Source: an uncultured Bacilli bacterium
Lineage (GTDB): Bacteria; Bacillota_I; Bacilli_A; RFN20; CAG-288
Assembly: GCA_944349335.1 (NCBI GenBank)
Contig: CALVMW010000001.1
Location: 80,309-144,308, forward strand
Direction of reading: 5' to 3'
Length of the DNA stretch: 64,000 nt
The notes under the pieces were generated by a model. It was given only the letters and a program-made list of their open reading frames with translations. It did not search any database and was not told the DNA's origin. Within the stretch, counting starts at the first letter, position 1, and each line of letters starts with the position of its first letter. The position numbers and the translations under genes are program-made. Shown here piece by piece: positions 1,526-11,431 of this stretch.

Positions 1526-2944
1526 CTAACCAATACAGGATAGAATCTCACTAGATTTAAGATGTTTCTTTTCATAGAGAAGCTTACCTAAAGCGCTGAT
1601 TTGATCTCTGTGTGCTTTAATATATTTAATAGTTTCTTTTTCACACTTTCTAAGTAAAGCTTCAATCTTTCTCTCCATCTTTCTTCTTTTGATAGAAGTT
1701 TCGGTTCTCTTTCCTGACACGATGTGGGGAAGAGTCTCCCAACAAGAGGAATAGCCACACATATTAAACATGTTGTAAGCATCGACTCTCGCGTCTTGTA
1801 AATCGTCCTCACATCCTCTTGAACCTCTTCCACAAATAATCTTTTGCGCAAGAACACCAGCCATCGAGATTTTAATATCGGCAATAATTTTCTCATACGG
1901 CCAAAAGTCGCTTTCAATTTCATTAGCATGAAATTCGCCACTAGCACCAGAAATATTAAGTCTATTAATCTTAAAGTACTCCGGAAATGCTTTAGCAACG
2001 ACTGCATGTCCTGCTTCATGAATAGCAACTTCTAAGTTATCTTGTTTAGGTTTATCTTTAACTCTATCAGTAATATTATAAATAGAATTATCAATCATTT
2101 CTGAAGTGATATTATCAAAGCCATTCCTTAAAACTAAATCGTTTACAACAGCTTTTACACCTGCGCAAGTGATACCATTTAATGAAAGAGCAACTTCTTC
2201 ATCAATGAAATCTTCTGGAAACTTAAGATTAAACTCATGAAAATACTTTTTGAGAATCTCTAAAGCTTCTTCACCAGTTGGATATGGTACTCTTAAGAGT
2301 TTTTCTAGTCTTCCATGACGTAATAAGGCATCAGGAATATCACTGATGCTATTAGTAGCAGTTAGAACTAAGATATCATCATAGCTTTCAACACCATCAA
2401 GGTTTTCTTGTAATGCTCGCACAACTCTTCTTTCATGATTAATGAGCAAATCTAACTCATCAATGACAATAATTGCATGATCTACTTCTCGAGCTTTTTT
2501 AAATGTTTCATTGATACCTCTAACAATATTATTTTGTTCACCTTTAAAGACAAACACTGGGCAGTCACAGCATTTAATAAACTCTTTAATAAACAGTGAT
2601 TTACCATTACCTGGTTCTCCAAAGAGAATCACACCTTTAGGAACTGAAATACCTTTTGCTTTATATTCTTTTGAATGTTTAAACCAATTAATAACACTAA
2701 GAAGCTCTTCCTTTTGAGCTTCATGACCAATTACTCTTTCTAAAGGAACTTCGCCTTCTTTAAGCTTTGAAGCATAAATAAGTTCATATGATTCTACTTC
2801 TTTTGTTGAAAGTGATTCTTTTGACTCACTTGTTAAAGTAGATTCATCAAACTCCACCCAATCTTCTAAATCTTCTTCTTTTAAGTCCTCTTGTTCTTGT
2901 TCTAATGCTTCATCTTCATTAATTTTCCTTAATTGATAGTTCAT
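1526..2944 (-). CDS. FtsH-like AAA+ ATPase / M41 zinc-metalloprotease without the N-terminal transmembrane/periplasmic region (472 aa); acidic low-complexity N-terminus
   Basis: Walker A GEPGNGKS, Walker B IVIDELD, second region of homology TATNSISDIPDALLRHGRLE, and zinc site HEAGHAVVAKAF all line up with FtsH. No hydrophobic N-terminal segment; the first ~60 aa are E/D-rich. Confidence 0.7.
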   Translation of the reverse strand: MNYQLRKINEDEALEQEQEDLKEEDLEDWVEFDESTLTSESKESLSTKEVESYELIYASKLKEGEVPLERVIGHEAQKEELLSVINWFKHSKEYKAKGISVPKGVILFGEPGNGKSLFIKEFIKCCDCPVFVFKGEQNNIVRGINETFKKAREVDHAIIVIDELDLLINHERRVVRALQENLDGVESYDDILVLTATNSISDIPDALLRHGRLEKLLRVPYPTGEEALEILKKYFHEFNLKFPEDFIDEEVALSLNGITCAGVKAVVNDLVLRNGFDNITSEMIDNSIYNITDRVKDKPKQDNLEVAIHEAGHAVVAKAFPEYFKINRLNISGASGEFHANEIESDFWPYEKIIADIKISMAGVLAQKIICGRGSRGCEDDLQDARVDAYNMFNMCGYSSCWETLPHIVSGKRTETSIKRRKMERKIEALLRKCEKETIKYIKAHRDQISALGKLLYEKKHLKSSEILSCIG

Positions 2945-3472
2945 ATTTTTCCTCGCTTTTCTCTATTATTATGAACACTTTTTTTACTTATTTTTTATAA
3001 ATTTAATTATGTCCTCATATAAGTACATCAATAAAAGTGAATAAGATAGTGTTTATATTTATAAAATACTCATTTTTTATATATTTTATTTATTTACTTT
3101 CTTCTAAAAATATCCATGTTTAATCAAATTTAACAAAAAAAATAATAAAAAAAAGAAAAAATAACATATTAAATTTTTTGATTATTGAAATGATTAAAAC
3201 TATAAAAAGTAAAAAAGTACTAATCTAACAATAACGATATATTTCTTCAAAAAAGTCTTTTGTTTTTAATTTCTATTCTTATTAAATCGACTCCTTAATC
3301 ACTTCAAAAAACAGTATTTTATTGAATATAAAATAAGAATATAAATAATTATAAATAGTCGAGTTATTTTAAACTATATAACTATTTTAATCTATATTAT
3401 CTTTAATTTATATATTCTCCATAAAATCACTATTAGAAATAAGAGAAGTGAAGAGACTATTTAAATAGTTCT

Positions 3473-3787
3473 TCAATCTCCAGAATTTCCTTGATGAGAA
3501 AGATAAGTTTCCTCTGTCTCCTCTCTTTTAAAAATATAAAAATTTTCAATTCTAGAAATCATAGTACTATTAAATGCTTTACGATAAGGATAAATACTAA
3601 TTAAATCAAATCCAGCTTCACCAATATTCTCTAAAGTTGTAAACCAAATATTATATTTTGGATTTTCATTTTCCATTTTAAGTTCTTTGATTAACCATTC
3701 TGCTGGAGGCTCTGAATTACACCAATACAAAATAGAATTTCTATAGCCATTGTCAGTAAATTTAAGATAAACATAAACTGTTTTCAT
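3473..3787 (-). CDS. hypothetical protein (104 aa), co-oriented 17 nt downstream of the 430-aa ORF
   Basis: ORF only; no motif recognised; tight spacing with the upstream gene suggests an operon. Confidence 0.4.
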   Translation of the reverse strand: MKTVYVYLKFTDNGYRNSILYWCNSEPPAEWLIKELKMENENPKYNIWFTTLENIGEAGFDLISIYPYRKAFNSTMISRIENFYIFKREETEETYLSHQGNSGD

Positions 3788-3804
3788 CGATTTAACCTCC
3801 TATT

Positions 3805-5097
3805 TTATGAATTATCTGTTAATTTAGTAATTTGTTCACTTATATCGAGATTTAATGTTTTAATGTATTTTTTAGCATGGTTAAAATAAAAATTATATAA
3901 TTTTTTGTTGATCATTTCGGGCCCTACTACGACAACCATATCGGAAATGTTAATATTTCCGTTACCATGTACATCACTTACAAGCCAGGACATGAAAGCA
4001 TCTGGATCAATATAAGTATTTACTACAAAATATTTCGGATCTTCACCTTCTTTAAGGGGATGAGGAATAATATAGTCAGCTTGATTGTCATTTGGATCAA
4101 TATTTTTAAGCTCATTAATATCAAATGAAGTACAAGAAACACAAGCAAATTTTGTAGAGAAGAACTCTTCATATGATCTTTTTACAAATTTAAAAAATGG
4201 TTTTCTAACATAGAAACTTGTTCTGATCGCTTCACCGCTGATAGGCATTTTATTTTCTTCGATCATTGTTTCTAATGAATCATAGTGTTTTTTAGCATAT
4301 TTAGATTTCTCTCTAAACAATTTTTCTAAATCTCTATTTTCATCAAAATCAGCGCATAATACTTCTTTATCTGAACCATCGGGTACATTAAGATTTTCGA
4401 TAGTATCAAATATATATCCCTTAAAAAAGATAAAGTCTCCAGTATCGATTGGTAATAAAAGTGCATATAGTTTATTTCGGTATTCTTTAATCTTATAAAC
4501 TCTATACCAAAAGTCATAGAAATAAATATCAGGACTCTTAAAACCACGTATTTTAAATCTGATTTTCAACATCTTTCCTTCAGTAAATGCCTTATTGACA
4601 AGCCTTATTTTTCTACTAGTAGCAATATTATATTTATTTACTCCTTTTTTAAGCTTCTTTAACTCATTTTTATAATAGCTTCGGTTATGAATATTTGATA
4701 AAGAGTCTAATAATCTTTCTATCAAAAAATCTGTATCCTCATCCTTTGTAAATTTATCATTTTGAACCGCTGCTAAAATTTTTAAAATTTGCTCTTCACT
4801 TAAATAATATTTCTGCTCAATATAATACTTGCCTGATTTTGTTACTTCTAAGACAAAAGGAACTACATCAGAAAATTTAGTGGTAACTTCCATTAAAAAT
4901 CTAAGACAGTCCCCGATTCTTTGTCTTCTAACATCATTACCCTTTTTGGCCTTAGCATCGTATTTTAAACCGAAGTCATTAGCGTGTCGACAAATATCTT
5001 GTTGTGTGGCTGGATGGTTTTCATCAGTAAATCTTAGCAAATAGTCCAGAGTAAGCAATAATTCTATTTGATGGATTCTAGTGTCTGAATTTCCCAT
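3805..5097 (-). CDS. hypothetical protein (430 aa) with N-terminal winged-HTH-like segment and a central WYL-like segment; possible BrxR/CapW-type regulator with a long C-terminal extension
   Basis: N-terminus RIHQIELLLTLDYLLRFTDENHPATQQDICRHA resembles the HTH_11 region of WYL regulators. Central KIRFKIRGFKSPDIYFYDFWYRVYKIKEYRNKLYALLLPIDTG resembles a WYL domain core. Inference from motif resemblance only. Confidence 0.45.
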   Translation of the reverse strand: MGNSDTRIHQIELLLTLDYLLRFTDENHPATQQDICRHANDFGLKYDAKAKKGNDVRRQRIGDCLRFLMEVTTKFSDVVPFVLEVTKSGKYYIEQKYYLSEEQILKILAAVQNDKFTKDEDTDFLIERLLDSLSNIHNRSYYKNELKKLKKGVNKYNIATSRKIRLVNKAFTEGKMLKIRFKIRGFKSPDIYFYDFWYRVYKIKEYRNKLYALLLPIDTGDFIFFKGYIFDTIENLNVPDGSDKEVLCADFDENRDLEKLFREKSKYAKKHYDSLETMIEENKMPISGEAIRTSFYVRKPFFKFVKRSYEEFFSTKFACVSCTSFDINELKNIDPNDNQADYIIPHPLKEGEDPKYFVVNTYIDPDAFMSWLVSDVHGNGNINISDMVVVVGPEMINKKLYNFYFNHAKKYIKTLNLDISEQITKLTDNS

Positions 5098-5524: not shown

Positions 5525-6540
5525 CTACTCCTCACTATCAATATTATCTTCCACTGTCTTTATAGATTCCAGGGCTTGATATTCCTGTTTTAATTCTCGA
5601 AGCAATTCTTCCTCGCTTGGTAAATACAATTTGTATTTTGACGCAAAAATCTGTGTTTCATTTTCAGGTAACGTATACTTAACTACAGACTCACTTTTAT
5701 CTGCGCACAAAACAATGCCAATCGGTGGATTGTCTCCCTCATTCATAAGTTCTCGCTCATAATAATGAACATACATCTGCATCTGTCCTAAATCCTGATG
5801 TGTTAAGTCTCCAACTTTTCAATCTATCAAAACAAAACACTTTAAAATGTAATTATAAAATACAAGATCAATTCTAAAATGCCGCCCATCAAATGTTATT
5901 CTTTTCTGTCTTGCAACAAATGAAAATCCTATGCCAAGTTCCAAAATAAATTTCTGTAAATGTGTAATTAGAGCTTGTTTTAAATCACTTTCATAAAAAT
6001 CTTCATTCGGTGTCAGTCCAAGAAATTCTAATACATATGGGTCACGGATGACATCTTCAGGTTTCTTCATCGGCTCTAAAGCCTGTATTTCCTGTGAAAC
6101 TTGCTCCTTATTTTTACTGGATAATAATCTTTCATAAAAGAAGGAATTTATCTGACGCTCAAGTTGTCTGGTACTCCATTGAGACTTTACAGCTTCCTGC
6201 ATATAAAATTCTCGTGCATTTTCATTCTCTACTCGCATTAGAAGGCGATAGTGCGTCCAACTCAATCCGCTACGCAGTGCGTAGCCATTTGGAAATGTTA
6301 AATAAAATTGCCTCATATTTTTCAAATTTGCAACGGTAAATCCTTTACCAAAATCTCGTGTCATTTGCTTTGACAACTCTTTTAATAAGCCTGTACCATA
6401 CTTAGCTTTTCCATTGCCACCTTGTTCTTCAATGATTGATTTTCCTATATTCCAATAGGCTTCAACCATTGCAAAATTAGCCGTTTGATAGACTTTATTT
6501 CTCGCTGTGGTTCAAATATTCTTTATTTCATCATAGAATT
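5525..6540 (-). pseudogene. YhcG/DUF1016-family PDDEXK nuclease, disrupted (two in-frame TGA codons, degraded start)
   Basis: The 216-aa (5819..6469) and 85-aa (5525..5782) track ORFs are in the same frame, separated by an in-frame TGA at 5819-5821 (...CFVLID*KVGDLTHQDLGQMQMY...). The N-terminal homology RNKVYQTANFAMVEAYWNIGKSIIE continues upstream of the annotated Met to a second in-frame TGA (...FYDEIKNI*TTARNKVY...) with no usable start. Matching residues include YWNIGK, NLKNMRQFY, RIDLVFYN and a DUF1016 C-terminal tail. Confidence 0.6.
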
Positions 6541-6574: not shown

Positions 6575-8584
6575 TTAAGATGGCATATTATCTTCGATAA
6601 TTTGTTTTATAATATCAAACACTAAATGAAATTCTGAAAAATCAATATTCTTCATTTCCTCACTCTCCGTGTAGATTGCCTTTGCAAATTCCATTTTGGA
6701 CAAAGCCAAATTAACCTTATTTTCATCTTTAATACTAAATACTCTTTTTTCCGATTGTCCGTCGATAATACAAATTTTCCCATGCCCACAACTATTTCTA
6801 TCCAAGCACATATAGTTCTTATCATTTGACAAACCAAATTCATCAAATTCCCGTCCCATATATATCCTTCTTGGAATACCATTAATCTCTATGGCTCTTT
6901 GTAAATCATCATCTAAATAATAATGTTCAATACACACTTGCTGCGTTTCTAATCTATGCTTTGGTATAGGCAAAATCATAGAATATACATTATTTTTCCA
7001 TATTTTGTACCTTCCTTCCACAGTTAATTGTTTGCTTGTATTTCTATCATCGGCATCAGCAACGAATATTATTTTTCGTGATTGCTGTACCTTTTCAAAT
7101 TCTTTGCACATTGTAACAAGATTAGAAGAACTCATATCTAATTTGGGGAGGTCATTGCTTTTAGAATTTTTAGGATTGTACTCAAGGAACTCTATGTCCA
7201 AATCATTATATTTTTTCTCCTGATTCTGAAAATAACGTAAAGCGGCTTTAAGATGCCTCCAGTCAGTTGCCCCTTCTGTTACAACTAAAGTCTTCTGCGT
7301 TCTATTTTGAATTGCATTTTTAATTTCTGATTGATATTTTTCTGTATTAGTCATATATGTGTATGCCTTCTTAAATTCTGTAAATCCTTCTGATGAGATT
7401 ATTTCTGCATTTGGCATCTGGTATATGTAATATCCATCTTTCCCATATTGTTCATCCATTCCTAACAGAAAAAGCGGGGAATGTGTCGTTATTATAAATT
7501 GTACTTTTGGAAATAATTTAAGCAATTTTGGTAACACCTCCCTCTGTAGTTTCGAATGTAAATGCAGTTCTATTTCATCAATAACAACAATCCCTTCTAT
7601 TTCATAATTCTTAATGCTTCTATTTATATCATTACTATCAGCATATCGTATAATCGTGGCAAACATATTAAACAATGCACTTTGTCCCGTTGATAATGCA
7701 TCCAATGTTGGGATTATGACTTTGTTGCTTTGACTATCAAAAATATTAAATCTTGATCCATACGCAGAACGAAAATTTAATCCAAAATATATATCTCTAC
7801 CGAGTATTTCCCCCATGACCTTTTCAATATTTTCTCTTGCAATATTCAATATCAATGCTTCGTTCACATCAACATGTGCAACTTGTAATCCAGTATTAGT
7901 TTTTTTTATATCCACTCTTGAATCCACAATGACATCCAAAAGCCACTTTAATGTTTCTTCCGTTACATTTTTTACTGAGATTGGCGTATTTAACTTTCCA
8001 TCATACCGATTTCTAATCATTATGTGCATGTCTGAGTCTTGCTCAGACACATAATATTTTTTCCCCATCCACTGGGGTCTTTCATATCTATCTGGTCCGA
8101 AATAACAAAAAATATTTTTCTCAAATACTTTTTCTATTTCTTTTTTTGAAATAAAAATATCTTTAAAATTTTCCTCATCTTTCCATATCCTTTTATTTTT
8201 TAATTCAACCCCTGTTTCAAGATGAAATTCATCATAAGTTAATTTGCCACTCTTAAATATATACTGACCTGCAGTATCTTCCTTATTAGATTCACAAAAT
8301 TCGATATAGGATATCATAAACTCATGACCAATATTTATCTCAGACGGAAGAATAGCTTTATAATATTGATAGCCTTCTCCATCTCTCTCTTGAACATTAT
8401 TGTAGACTTTTCCGGCCATTTCATAAAATGCATCAACTATGTTAGATAGTACTGTCGATTTTCCAGAACCATTTTCTCCGACTAATACAACGGGTTTAGG
8501 TGTATTATCACTATTTTTTCCAAAACTAATATTAACCCTTTCAGTAGGTCCAATGTTTCTATTATAAATAGATTTTATTTGCAC
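6575..8584 (-). CDS. OLD-family ABC-type ATPase fused to a C-terminal Toprim (DUF4435-like) nuclease domain; length and architecture fit a single-polypeptide PARIS (AriA-AriB) defence protein or a class-1 OLD nuclease
   Basis: N-terminal Walker A VLVGENGSGKSTVL; ABC-type Walker B/H-loop VVIDEIELHLH...FIITTHSPLFL; C-terminal LVVTEGATDWRHLKAA (Toprim Glu) and IIFVADADDRN (DxD). Intact 669-aa ORF. Confidence 0.65.
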   Translation of the reverse strand: MQIKSIYNRNIGPTERVNISFGKNSDNTPKPVVLVGENGSGKSTVLSNIVDAFYEMAGKVYNNVQERDGEGYQYYKAILPSEINIGHEFMISYIEFCESNKEDTAGQYIFKSGKLTYDEFHLETGVELKNKRIWKDEENFKDIFISKKEIEKVFEKNIFCYFGPDRYERPQWMGKKYYVSEQDSDMHIMIRNRYDGKLNTPISVKNVTEETLKWLLDVIVDSRVDIKKTNTGLQVAHVDVNEALILNIARENIEKVMGEILGRDIYFGLNFRSAYGSRFNIFDSQSNKVIIPTLDALSTGQSALFNMFATIIRYADSNDINRSIKNYEIEGIVVIDEIELHLHSKLQREVLPKLLKLFPKVQFIITTHSPLFLLGMDEQYGKDGYYIYQMPNAEIISSEGFTEFKKAYTYMTNTEKYQSEIKNAIQNRTQKTLVVTEGATDWRHLKAALRYFQNQEKKYNDLDIEFLEYNPKNSKSNDLPKLDMSSSNLVTMCKEFEKVQQSRKIIFVADADDRNTSKQLTVEGRYKIWKNNVYSMILPIPKHRLETQQVCIEHYYLDDDLQRAIEINGIPRRIYMGREFDEFGLSNDKNYMCLDRNSCGHGKICIIDGQSEKRVFSIKDENKVNLALSKMEFAKAIYTESEEMKNIDFSEFHLVFDIIKQIIEDNMPS

Positions 8585-8675: not shown

Positions 8676-8864
8676 TCAAAAAAACCTTAATGCATCCTTT
8701 ATTGCTCCCACTTTCTCCACTGTTGAATATTTCCTCGAATGTTTAAATTCTTCTACCGCATTAGAGGCATCATACATTGGCAAACCCAAACTTCTTTTTA
8801 CCTCTGCTATATAAGCGGTAAGTACCTTGAATCCATGATTAGCTTCTATGTATTTATTTATCAT
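8676..8864 (-). other. small ORF / possible gene remnant immediately 3' of rlmD; its reading frame extends upstream without a start and overlaps the rlmD stop
   Basis: 62-aa track ORF; the same frame translates further 5' (…VRVEFGEREGKISLDNIVKRAEACKPKERVTYKMINKY…) with no Met; no family recognised. Confidence 0.2.
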
Positions 8865-8976: not shown

Positions 8977-10320
8977 TCAGGTTTTTTTGTGGGAAAGCAG
9001 TACTACTGTCTCTACGTGAAGAGTAAAAGGAAACATATCGACTGGTGTCACTCTTTTTACTTCATAATAGTCTTTTAATACATTTATATCGCGGGCTAAT
9101 GTGACAGGATCACAAGAAACATATACTACCTTTTGAGGTCTCAAATTAATTAATGATTGCAAAAATTCTACTGTCGCTCCTTTTCGAGGTGGATCCATGA
9201 TGACAACTGAAAAAGGAATCGTCGTTTTTTGCATAAATTCAGTGCAATCATCAGCGATGAAGTGAGCATTAAAAATATTATTAATTTTAGCGTTAATTTT
9301 AGCATCAGCGACAGCTTGTTTAACAATTTCAACTCCATAAACTTCTTTTACTTCTCTAGCACAAGATAAGCCGATCGTTCCAGTTCCACAATAGGCATCA
9401 AGAAGGATGTCATCTTTATTTAATTCAGCTCCTTTAATAGCTAAAGAATATAAATTTTCAACCTGTTTAGAATTAACTTGATAAAAAGAGTGTGAAGAAA
9501 TCAAAAACTTGTTGGTGAATATTTGATCTTTGATTCTTGTATACCCATATATAGGGACATCTTTTTCACCAAGAATAACATTAGTATGTCGATTATTAAT
9601 ATTAAAAACTACCCCTTTAACTTCAGAAATTTTTGAAATTAAGCGTTTAGCAAATTCTTTTCGGCCTTTTAATTTAGCATCTTTTACAACTATTGTAACT
9701 AATGCTTCTGATGAATCTGAGTTAGTTTTAATCAGTAAATGGCGAATATCACCTTCCATAGTATCTTCATCATAAGGTTTATATTTAAATTCTTGAAAGA
9801 GTTTTAAAGTATAATTAGTTATCTTTGTAGCTAGATTACTCTCCAATAAACATGAAGAAATAGGAACTAATTTATGAGTATTTAATGAATAATAACCAGC
9901 AGCGATTTTACCTTGAACTAACTTAATAGGCTTTTGAACTTTATTGCGATAATGATAGGGTGAAGCTAATGAGATTGTATCATCTACATCAATATCTAAA
10001 GAAGCAAATTTTTTAAATAGATTCTTAACTTTTTCCTTTTTATATTTTAATTGTTCTTTATAATCTAAATGCATAAGCTGACAGCCTCCGCATTTAGGAT
10101 AATAAGGACAAGGAGAATTAACTCTAAAAGGTGAAGATTTTAATCTTTTAATCACTTTAACATCTTTTAATTTTCCGTACTCAAAAGTCGTCTCAATGAG
10201 AGCCTTCTCTTGAGGCAACATGTCAGGAATAAATATTGTCTTATTATCTAAATAAGCGATTCCTCTTCCAAAATCATCTAGTGAGAGGATAGTTACTTCA
10301 TTTACTCTTTTACTCATCAT
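8977..10320 (-). CDS. rlmD: 23S rRNA (uracil-C5)-methyltransferase, RumA/RlmD family (TRAM + Fe-S + SAM methyltransferase)
   Basis: N-terminal TRAM-like beta region, Cys cluster CPYYPKCGGCQLMHL, SAM motif LLDAYCGTGTIGL, and C-terminal catalytic region DPPRKG...VSCDP. Confidence 0.8.
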   Translation of the reverse strand: MMSKRVNEVTILSLDDFGRGIAYLDNKTIFIPDMLPQEKALIETTFEYGKLKDVKVIKRLKSSPFRVNSPCPYYPKCGGCQLMHLDYKEQLKYKKEKVKNLFKKFASLDIDVDDTISLASPYHYRNKVQKPIKLVQGKIAAGYYSLNTHKLVPISSCLLESNLATKITNYTLKLFQEFKYKPYDEDTMEGDIRHLLIKTNSDSSEALVTIVVKDAKLKGRKEFAKRLISKISEVKGVVFNINNRHTNVILGEKDVPIYGYTRIKDQIFTNKFLISSHSFYQVNSKQVENLYSLAIKGAELNKDDILLDAYCGTGTIGLSCAREVKEVYGVEIVKQAVADAKINAKINNIFNAHFIADDCTEFMQKTTIPFSVVIMDPPRKGATVEFLQSLINLRPQKVVYVSCDPVTLARDINVLKDYYEVKRVTPVDMFPFTLHVETVVLLSHKKT

Positions 10321-11431
10321 CTAATCCATCGATAGGTCCAATCTTCTCTTTAAGAATATCTGAAACCATCTTTACATCTTCTAAATAAAACAAAGAACGT
10401 TCTTTTTCTTCTTTATGCATAACGAAATAAATCTTCATATATTTTAAATATAATTCAGCGATCCTTACATATGATTGATAAGTCATAGCAAGTGATAAGT
10501 CTTTGCAAAATTCATCGTTAACATAGAAAAAAGCCGAAGAAGAGTGGGCAATTTCACTAGCACCCTCATAGATTTTTGAATATTTTGATAATTCAGCAAG
10601 CTTTTCAACTCCATCGCGGAAGTTTAATTTAAAGCAGGCATCATTAGGATCAAATTTAGGATGAGAATAAAGCCAACCATATTCGATAAATTTTTTCATA
10701 TCTTTGCTCTTTAAGCCGTGTTCTTTCATATTTTCTTTGATCTGGGCAAAGATAATATCTAGTTCTTCTTGCGCAAAATTATCTTTATTTCTATAAGCAT
10801 TATTATAACTTATATGAGTTAAATAATCGCGGCGGCATTTTTCATCACCATCAACTAAAAGTTTTAAAACACATTCAGATTCATGCAATGTTCGCCAAGA
10901 GACAAAGGCATCAGGAAAAAGACCTAAGTTAAGCATTTTTAAAAAACCAGTAACCTTCTTAAAAACAGTTTCAAAAATATCGCTTACTAAAGAAGTAGAA
11001 GGATTAACTAGAGCCAGAGGAGAATTGATATGTTCTAAATAATCGACTGATGATTGCAAAATAGAAACATAGGGATCAGATGGTTCTATTCCAGTATTTA
11101 TATTATTTTTTGAATACGCTAAATATTCGTCATACCTTTTTAATAAATTGTTGACAACATCATAATTTTTCTTTTTCTTCTCATAATCAGGAATGAGTTT
11201 TAACTTTTTATATTCGCTGATAAGCATATCGATAAAAGAAGTTAATCTTCTTCTGATCTCAAAAGCCGAAAGTCCTTCAAAAGAGTTATTATAGCGACTA
11301 AAAATCTGTTTAATAGTCTTTTTCCCCATCTCTAAAATTCCCGCAACATCTGTGTCGCTTAAATCATGAGCTTGGAATTTGATCATATCGATGACGATTA
11401 AATCGAAGGTAGTTGTATTTATTTTTTCCAT
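10310..11431 (-). CDS. hypothetical protein (373 aa), possible N-terminal HTH
   Basis: ORF overlaps its neighbours by 11-13 nt (operon-like); SDTDVAGILEMGKKTIKQIF could be an HTH; nothing else recognised. Confidence 0.4.
   Translation of the reverse strand: MEKINTTTFDLIVIDMIKFQAHDLSDTDVAGILEMGKKTIKQIFSRYNNSFEGLSAFEIRRRLTSFIDMLISEYKKLKLIPDYEKKKKNYDVVNNLLKRYDEYLAYSKNNINTGIEPSDPYVSILQSSVDYLEHINSPLALVNPSTSLVSDIFETVFKKVTGFLKMLNLGLFPDAFVSWRTLHESECVLKLLVDGDEKCRRDYLTHISYNNAYRNKDNFAQEELDIIFAQIKENMKEHGLKSKDMKKFIEYGWLYSHPKFDPNDACFKLNFRDGVEKLAELSKYSKIYEGASEIAHSSSAFFYVNDEFCKDLSLAMTYQSYVRIAELYLKYMKIYFVMHKEEKERSLFYLEDVKMVSDILKEKIGPIDGLDDE

Follow-up and report, generated by a model that had tools for sequence, protein, structure and literature searches.

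A predicted single-protein defence nuclease that joins a PtuA-like ABC ATPase to a retron Eco2-type Toprim domain

Pairs of an ATP-binding cassette (ABC) ATPase and a nuclease (OLD, Gabija, PARIS, Septu, retron types I-A and I-B) belong to the most common immune modules of bacteria, and it is still debated how their ATPases sense infection and gate the nuclease. A 64,000-nucleotide stretch of DNA from an uncultured Bacilli bacterium (GenBank assembly GCA_944349335.1, contig CALVMW010000001.1, positions 80,309 to 144,308; here called the window) encodes a 669-amino-acid (aa) protein of this kind, a single chain of an ABC ATPase and a Toprim domain, which an initial annotation made from the sequence alone took for a single-polypeptide PARIS (AriAB) protein. 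To which of the known systems does this protein belong, and can it act alone? Both of its domains can be identified, the catalytic motifs of both are intact, the gene has no obligatory partner, and its homologues occur in defence-type contexts. We propose, with a probability of roughly 0.7, that it is a stand-alone, single-polypeptide anti-phage nuclease acting by abortive infection, composed of a PtuA-type ABC ATPase and a Toprim domain of the type I-C (Eco2/Ec67) retron lineage.

An intact gene under selection

The gene is a single uninterrupted open reading frame (ORF) of 669 codons plus stop:

6575..8584, minus strand: whole gene for the 669-aa ABC ATPase-Toprim fusion, GTG start codon, TAA stop included (ORF list with translation; ribosome-binding site; identical protein P0001)

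The sequence AGGAAGGAG lies about 9-10 nt upstream of the GTG codon, at a distance like that of a ribosome-binding site, and the N-terminus, (M)QIKSIYNRNIGP, fits the family consensus MYIKxIxxxNxGPIE; the ORF is as intact as the initial annotation had described it. By our estimate, the chance of an open frame of 669 codons is about 1e-24 in DNA of ~31% G+C, where stops make up ~8% of random codons. Contigs of up to 0.88 Mb from human-gut metagenomes encode an identical protein (P0001), full-length homologues sharing 49-94% identity with it number more than 120, and in an alignment of 54 homologues the catalytic residues of both domains are invariant. Because the open frame is beyond chance, the homologues are many and these residues are invariant, the gene is real, intact and under selection. 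It had been placed in an AT-rich stretch; the window is indeed AT-rich throughout, but at 31-33% G+C the gene is not AT-richer than its surroundings (22-31%). All the motifs quoted in its support (GENGSGKST, VVIDEIELHLH, TTHSP, VVTEGATD at aa 434-441 and FVADADDRN at aa 507-515) are found in the translation, and the predicted arrangement, an ABC-type ATPase followed by a Toprim domain on one polypeptide, holds.

The N-terminal domain is a PtuA-like ATPase

The N-terminal part of the protein contains a complete set of ABC ATPase motifs:

7400..8584, minus strand: aa 1-395, PtuA-like ABC ATPase domain in which a large insert separates Walker A from the signature (Pfam, PADLOC, phmmer, Foldseek, AlphaFold2)
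8453..8479, minus strand: Walker A (P-loop) GENGSGKST, aa 36-44, with K42 (translation; G36, N38, G39, G41 and K42 invariant in 54 homologues)
7682..7696, minus strand: ABC signature LSTGQ, aa 297-301 (translation; L297, S298, T299, G300 and Q301 invariant; aligned to the PtuA signature region)
7556..7588, minus strand: Walker B and D-loop VVIDEIELHLH, aa 333-343, with D336 and the catalytic E337 (D336, E337, L340, H341, L342 and H343 invariant)
7475..7489, minus strand: H-loop TTHSP, aa 366-370, with H368 (translation; H368 and P370 invariant)
7298..7399, minus strand: linker between ATPase and Toprim, aa 396-429, with a long helix at aa 402-426 (AlphaFold2 secondary structure)

The ATPase site is complete, its Walker A, signature, Walker B glutamate and H-loop all being invariant. 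Pfam recognizes only generic ABC-type ATPases within aa 1-373, namely AAA_21 (2.7e-20, 74.1 bits) and AAA_15 (4e-12, 46.9 bits); these are the two ATPase families that the initial annotation had expected, while the DUF4435 and OLD-type Toprim families expected with them gave no match. More specific comparisons point to PtuA, the ATPase of Septu and of type I-A retrons. The PADLOC PtuA model matches the N-terminal domain at 5.2e-34, and 24 of the 25 best full-protein matches are PtuA or type I-A retron ATPase models. In a phmmer search of Protein Data Bank (PDB) sequences, the best matches of the ATPase are PtuA of retrons Ec78 and Ec83 (~5e-14), followed at a distance by AriA (8e-3, over 48 residues) and the Thermus OLD protein (TsOLD, 6p74; 0.63). 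An AlphaFold2 model of the whole protein (pLDDT, the predicted local distance difference test score, 83.6) gave PtuA chains only among its best 50 Foldseek matches in the PDB, not the P2 Old, GajA or AriA/AriB structures suggested for comparison. The protein scores 84.5 bits with the NCBIfam PtuA equivalog model, against a cut-off of 500; by these profile and sequence scores, the N-terminal domain is PtuA-like but not a PtuA equivalog.

The C-terminal domain is a Toprim of the type I-C retron lineage

The remainder of the protein carries the motifs of a Toprim nuclease:

6578..7297, minus strand: C-terminal Toprim nuclease domain of the retron Eco2/type I-C lineage, aa 430-669
7262..7276, minus strand: Toprim motif IV EGxxD, E437-G438-A-T-D441 (HMMER places TEGATD on Ec67 TEGKTD 373-378; invariant across all architectures)
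7049..7057, minus strand: Toprim motif V DxD, D510-A-D512 (translation; invariant; probable equivalents of Eco2 D460/D462, from motif order, PMC12405507)
6926..6928, minus strand: E553 in CIEHYY, proposed second-metal ligand (putative equivalent of Eco2 E515, from order and spacing)
6695..6697, minus strand: K630 in LSKMEF, candidate catalytic or substrate-binding lysine (family-invariant; aligned with an Ec67 lysine)

None of the Pfam DUF4435, Toprim and OLD models matches the isolated C-terminal 272 aa at E<=10, and DUF4435 does not match the whole protein at E<=1. The initial annotation had itself named the lack of a DUF4435 or OLD-Toprim match in the C-terminal 250 aa as evidence that would count against it; for the Pfam models this lack is real, yet judged by retron profiles, motifs and predicted fold, the domain is a true Toprim, belonging to the retron I-C lineage. 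The PADLOC model for the type I-C reverse transcriptase (RT)-Toprim fusion matches it at 1.3e-32 (profile positions 304-528 of 529) and NCBIfam retron_Ec67_fus matches the protein at 2.9e-8; both align only from profile position ~300 on. The sole PADLOC match of the DUF4435 kind is AbiLii (E 0.016). A single-sequence phmmer search of PDB sequences with the C-terminus returned chance matches only; the link to Ec67 emerged only with a profile of 22 C-terminal sequences, which matched the retron Ec67 (Eco2) protein (E 2.6e-4) and nothing else among all PDB sequences. In Foldseek, only Eco2 chains are significant for the Toprim domain (4e-7 to 1e-6), with AriB at 0.05-0.08, and in a tblastn search aa 422-664 match, at 30.6% identity, a gene of Herpetosiphon that carries the annotation RNA-directed DNA polymerase. 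Two PADLOC models named RT-TIR_XII (PDLC02961 and PDLC02962) also match this Toprim (3.7e-13) as well as other Toprim-bearing proteins.

Two motifs, IV (EGxxD) and V (DxD), define the type I-C Toprim, which forms a lineage separate from OLD (Mestre et al., PMC7736814). In Eco2, metal A is bound by E374 and D460/D462 and metal B by D378 and S513/E515; mutating the metal ligands abolishes defence, E374A and D378A also strongly reduce RNase activity, and K383 contacts the RNA backbone (PMC12405507). In the HMMER alignment, E437 and D441 fall on Eco2 E374 and D378, and the nearly invariant K446 is aligned with K383 in a common LKAAL segment. Among 150 cluster representatives with an Eco2-type Toprim in any architecture, E553 (E178 of P0121) is the sole fully invariant residue, and E437, G438, D441, D510, D512, R544 and K630 are invariant or nearly so. 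Because of this conservation, the Toprim active site looks complete from its sequence.

Relation to known ATPase-Toprim and retron systems

The protein shares with Eco2 (Ec67, a type I-C RT-Toprim fusion; PDB 9i2f, 9lm3) its Toprim lineage, EGxxD and DxD motifs, the TEGxTD...LKAAL segment and a C-terminal helix, and by analogy two-metal cleavage is its likely chemistry. It differs in what stands before the Toprim: the N-terminal position is held by the ABC ATPase (aa 1-395) in the window protein and by the RT in Eco2. Regulation in Eco2 depends on multicopy single-stranded DNA (msDNA) as well as the phage nuclease DenB; the window protein has no RT (no RVT_1 match) and hence no msDNA cage. We therefore rejected a retron identity, for want of an RT. 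With PtuA of Septu and of type I-A retrons (Ec78/Eco7, Ec83/Eco4), it appears to share the ABC ATPase clade, as judged by hidden Markov models, sequence and fold, and its catalytic sites are complete. The nuclease here is a fused Toprim instead of a PtuB HNH partner. A Septu identity was likewise rejected, as there is no PtuB and no adjoining HNH gene in the window or in the homologue loci.

PARIS, in which the AriA ATPase senses anti-restriction proteins such as Ocr and Stp and a DUF4435 Toprim (AriB) cleaves tRNA-Lys, also couples an AAA_15/AAA_21-type ABC ATPase to a Toprim effector; fused versions exist, and the outcome would be comparable if the substrate of the window protein were tRNA. 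PARIS is defined as AAA_15/AAA_21 plus DUF4435 (PMC9122126). The scores of the window ATPase exceed the ATPase thresholds (a minimum of 32 bits for AAA_15 or of 27 bits for AAA_21, PMC9122126), which are not specific, as PtuA and many other ATPases pass them too; for the Toprim, DUF4435 (PF14491) does not reach its 27 bits. With this signature missing, and with AriA and AriB only remote by sequence and fold and not the closest solved relatives of either domain, PARIS membership is largely refuted, and we consider it very improbable. Because the threshold of the published merged AAA_21+DUF4435 profile is just 20 bits, an automated run might nevertheless call the protein PARIS on its ATPase alone.

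A second alternative is that the protein is a strict Class 1 OLD nuclease, a relative of P2 Old, Thermus OLD and Vibrio OLD that acts as a DNA nickase or exonuclease. It has the N-terminal ABC ATPase and C-terminal two-metal Toprim of the OLD family at large (Class 1 P2 Old/TsOLD/Vibrio OLD, Class 2 GajA, Class 3 retron Eco8 OLD), and the single-gene context, with no conserved UvrD-like helicase, retron or other partner, is that of Class 1. However, neither domain falls in the OLD clades by sequence: Pfam finds no OLD-type Toprim or DUF2813, and TsOLD is no closer than the E value given above. OLD and GajA structures are absent from the best 50 full-length fold matches, and the I-C Toprim is the separate lineage of Mestre et al. 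A Class 1 OLD identity is accordingly unlikely, if less so than PARIS.

A functional parallel is HEC-04 (Hma-embedded candidate 04; Payne et al. 2024), an experimentally validated single-chain ABC ATPase-Toprim anti-phage protein that depends both on the lysine of its Walker A and on the acidic residues of its Toprim (bioRxiv 10.1101/2024.01.29.577857). HEC-04 too is a single polypeptide, and it came to light embedded in another defence system, but size and residue spacing differ (K62, E319, D375 and D377 in HEC-04, versus K42, E437, D510 and D512). No HEC-04 model is among the PADLOC matches to the C-terminal domain. In its way of working, the window protein would fall with the ATPase-Toprim systems (OLD, Gabija, PARIS, HEC-04), yet it does not belong to PARIS itself.

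No model in Pfam (2025), NCBIfam 20.0 (2026) or PADLOC-DB 2.0 covers the whole protein or names its family, whose members carry labels such as "AAA family ATPase", "ATP-binding protein" and "hypothetical protein" in public records. Text searches of the literature found no paper on a fusion of a PtuA-like ATPase with an Eco2-type Toprim, though subscription journals or recent screens may hold one. The divergence suggested earlier stands, and the family is an unnamed one.

A self-contained gene among immune systems and mobile elements

Does the protein need a partner? In the window and in three homologue contexts (52-54% identity), there is no RT, HNH or other conserved neighbour beside the gene. 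The first of these contexts lies between IS110 copies and small ORFs, the second is an island where a helicase/MZB/HNH system is found together with serine recombinases that are broken and a Schlafen/AlbA protein, and the third is described below. Scanning one genome per species located 34 further loci in Bacillota, Actinomycetota, Bacteroidota, Fibrobacterota, Spirochaetota, Desulfobacterota, Kiritimatiellae and others; copies at ~35-55% identity are found across many phyla, and their spread is patchy. When every ORF of 70 aa or more within 6 kb was clustered over 38 loci, no neighbour family was present in more than seven, and the one that reached seven was HsdM. In one locus (L007), an HNH_2 gene lies ~1.9 kb upstream, beyond recombinase fragments.

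The HsdM neighbours belong to type I restriction-modification (R-M) operons. The order hsdR-hsdS-GENE-hsdM is found in L027 (1292-9494), L029 and L033, and in L030 and L039 as far as the contigs extend, with partial versions in L021 and L016. HsdM is ~80% identical in five of the seven R-M-linked loci, and this identity across metagenome-assembled genomes of different phyla suggests a mobile cassette or binning errors. One homologue (P0053) has an N-terminal HSDR_N domain, and IS110 elements or integrases lie near some family members. The placement between hsdS and hsdM resembles that of the PrrC gene, which lies within EcoprrI, and the "guilt-by-embedding" pattern. Only three short unannotated fragments in the phage collection match the family, in part, and plasmids gave only partial or distant matches, annotated "AAA family ATPase". 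The gene is self-contained and often lies in or beside other immune systems and mobile elements.

These contexts bear on two further alternatives. The protein could be a housekeeping ATPase-nuclease for DNA repair or chromosome maintenance, similar to RecF, RecN or SbcC, and a weak match to Pfam SMC_N (1e-9, under the gathering score) and the copies that lie between core metabolic genes are consistent with this. The patchy occurrence across phyla, which has the look of horizontal transfer, the copies embedded in R-M operons and defence islands or beside insertion sequences and integrases, and the best matches of both domains, which are immune proteins, argue against it, and we give a housekeeping role little credence. 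Alternatively, the protein could serve as effector in a multi-gene system resembling a retron or Septu, with the partner (RT plus noncoding RNA, or PtuB HNH) encoded elsewhere or lost, so that alone it would be inactive or unregulated. The closest characterised relatives of both domains do come from retron systems (type I-A PtuA, type I-C Toprim), and the island around the window copy is in decay, its DUF1016 gene split and a recombinase reduced to a remnant. Against this, none of the 38 loci has an RVT_1, HNH or conserved neighbour, and Rfam detects no noncoding RNA near the window gene. Moreover, because the family is full-length, with catalytic residues invariant down to 49% identity in the 54-sequence alignment, and has copies at ~35-55% identity in many phyla, it appears to be under selection for autonomous function. 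A lost-partner effector is therefore hardly probable.

The island in the window

On the 5' side of the gene lie a RumA-type rRNA methyltransferase gene and a 62-aa ORF; on the 3' side it is followed by a split nuclease gene, two ORFs without a family match and the gene for a soluble AAA-peptidase M41:

8676-8864, minus strand: 62-aa ORF between the RumA-like gene and the ATPase-Toprim gene
5525-6469, minus strand: split DUF1016/YhcG PD-(D/E)xK nuclease gene, as 216- and 85-aa ORFs (PADLOC candidate PDC-S02, 2.4e-99)
1526-5097, minus strand: 430-aa ORF, 104-aa ORF and 472-aa AAA+/peptidase M41 gene

The description of the protein as a defence-type gene in an accessory stretch, next to a decayed nuclease gene, agrees with these neighbours. 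The DUF1016/YhcG gene is a decayed defence candidate, split in two and without ~38 N-terminal profile positions; in L039, too, a related gene is close to the family member. The 430- and 104-aa ORFs have no Pfam or PADLOC match, and the 472-aa protein, a soluble, FtsH-like AAA+/peptidase M41 with an acidic N-terminus, has weak similarity to IetA (5.7e-14); together, the three genes may form another, unrecognised defence unit. The 62-aa ORF, also without a Pfam or PADLOC match, is 39% identical over 61 aa to the C-terminal end of the large serine recombinase in L016 and is probably what remains of a recombinase-borne element inserted immediately downstream of rumA. A 373-aa DUF5677 protein is encoded at 10310-11431 (minus strand), between an HI0933-like flavoprotein gene and the RumA-like gene, in a frame that overlaps both. 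At gathering thresholds, Rfam finds only two tRNAs in the whole window, at 56.5 kb, and no noncoding RNA near the ATPase-Toprim gene; retron noncoding RNAs are poorly covered by Rfam, and none is expected without an RT. Promoter and terminator scans gave counts no higher than in shuffled sequence.

A possible mechanism

Two better-known systems suggest how a protein of this composition could work. In the Eco2 retron, msDNA cages the Toprim until the phage nuclease DenB degrades the msDNA; once free, the Toprim is toxic and, as an RNase, nicks the acceptor stems of tRNAs and also cleaves other RNAs (PMC12405507, PMC12916289). Stand-alone PtuAB traps ATP, and its activation by phage proteins and falling ATP levels has been proposed, while retron-bound PtuAB is released in a manner dependent on ATP hydrolysis (PMC12819146). 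In the stand-alone nuclease that we favour, the PtuA-like ATPase would self-associate via the large insert between Walker A and signature and, while nucleotide is bound, would keep the fused Toprim site inactive. A phage cue, perhaps a phage protein or an altered nucleotide or nucleic-acid state, would be sensed by the ATPase and would cause ATP-dependent changes in conformation. The two-metal Toprim site (E437, D441, D510, D512 and E553, with K630) would then be free to cut nucleic acid, so that translation or replication would halt and the infection would be aborted.

By analogy with Eco2, RNA is most probably the target, meaning tRNAs and other RNAs, and it is slightly favoured because the RNA-contacting K383 of Eco2 aligns with the nearly invariant K446. 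We put the chance of an RNA or tRNA substrate at about even, and that of DNA only somewhat lower.

Several points weigh against this reading as a whole. The defence function of the family is one that we infer from homology and context. Eco2 and the window Toprim are only 23% identical over 185 aligned residues, and the suggested equivalence of E553 and K630 to Eco2 catalytic residues comes from motif order and a weak HMMER alignment. The lysine reported as K562 (PMC12405507) is not the one aligned with K630. Because the substrates of Toprim relatives vary (DNA for GajA, retron Eco8 OLD and Vibrio OLD; tRNA for AriB, Eco2 and P2 Old), the substrate cannot be read from the fold. The R-M-linked loci may represent only one or few embedding events, because hsdM is so similar in five of them, and in the third homologue context, in Coprobacillus, the gene stands in housekeeping surroundings between guaA and a NUDIX gene. 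As to the lysine, position 562 is Asp in the Ec67 PDB chain, where the residue aligned with K630 is K541; K562 may follow the numbering of the Burkholderia OLD reference.

The Eco2-type Toprim is shared among many architectures

At 50% identity, 961 clusters contain the Eco2-type Toprim. The PtuA-like ATPase of this family is present in 59 of the 150 best representatives, truncated fragments counted. Other N-terminal modules include distant AAA_15/AAA_21 ATPases, N6/N4 DNA methyltransferases, RVT_1, SIR2, FtsK, receiver, Sel1 and HTH domains; in a Pfam scan of the 68 representatives without the family ATPase that are long enough for another domain, five are fused to an N6_N4 DNA methyltransferase, and SIR2_2, FtsK, receiver, Sel1 repeats and HTH_3 were also found. 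In P0243, the Toprim is N-terminal to an SspH/mad8-like domain, and in P0183 (868 aa) it is duplicated. A large group of ~540-aa proteins (among them P0135, P0143, P0157, P0159, P0168 and P0186) has it at the C-terminus. These were considered as RT-Toprim retrons and rejected, as the PADLOC RT-Toprim_I-C model matches only their Toprim half, from position ~300. Their N-terminal domain of ~300 aa has no PADLOC match in these six members and no Pfam match in P0135, and is either a highly diverged RT or a new sensor domain.

Implications

Modular exchange between ABC ATPases and Toprim domains is already an established theme. This family, a natural chimera, combines Septu PtuA with the retron Eco2 Toprim, both of recently solved structure, and is widespread in gut anaerobes. 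For annotation, it means that rules based on the ATPase may mislabel such proteins as PARIS or Septu. As a minimal one-protein system, it allows one to ask if direct gating of a Toprim RNase by a PtuA-type ATPase is possible with neither msDNA nor a separate partner. We tentatively suggest, as an idea that we hold to be somewhat less probable than its opposite, that this is a new autonomous single-gene defence in which a Septu-type ATPase replaces the RT/msDNA cage in gating an Eco2-type Toprim tRNase, with the Toprim as an effector cassette that is exchanged freely. The "retron-type" Toprim is not specific to retrons and, if the cassette view is true, type I-C retrons would be one among many gates for the same toxin.

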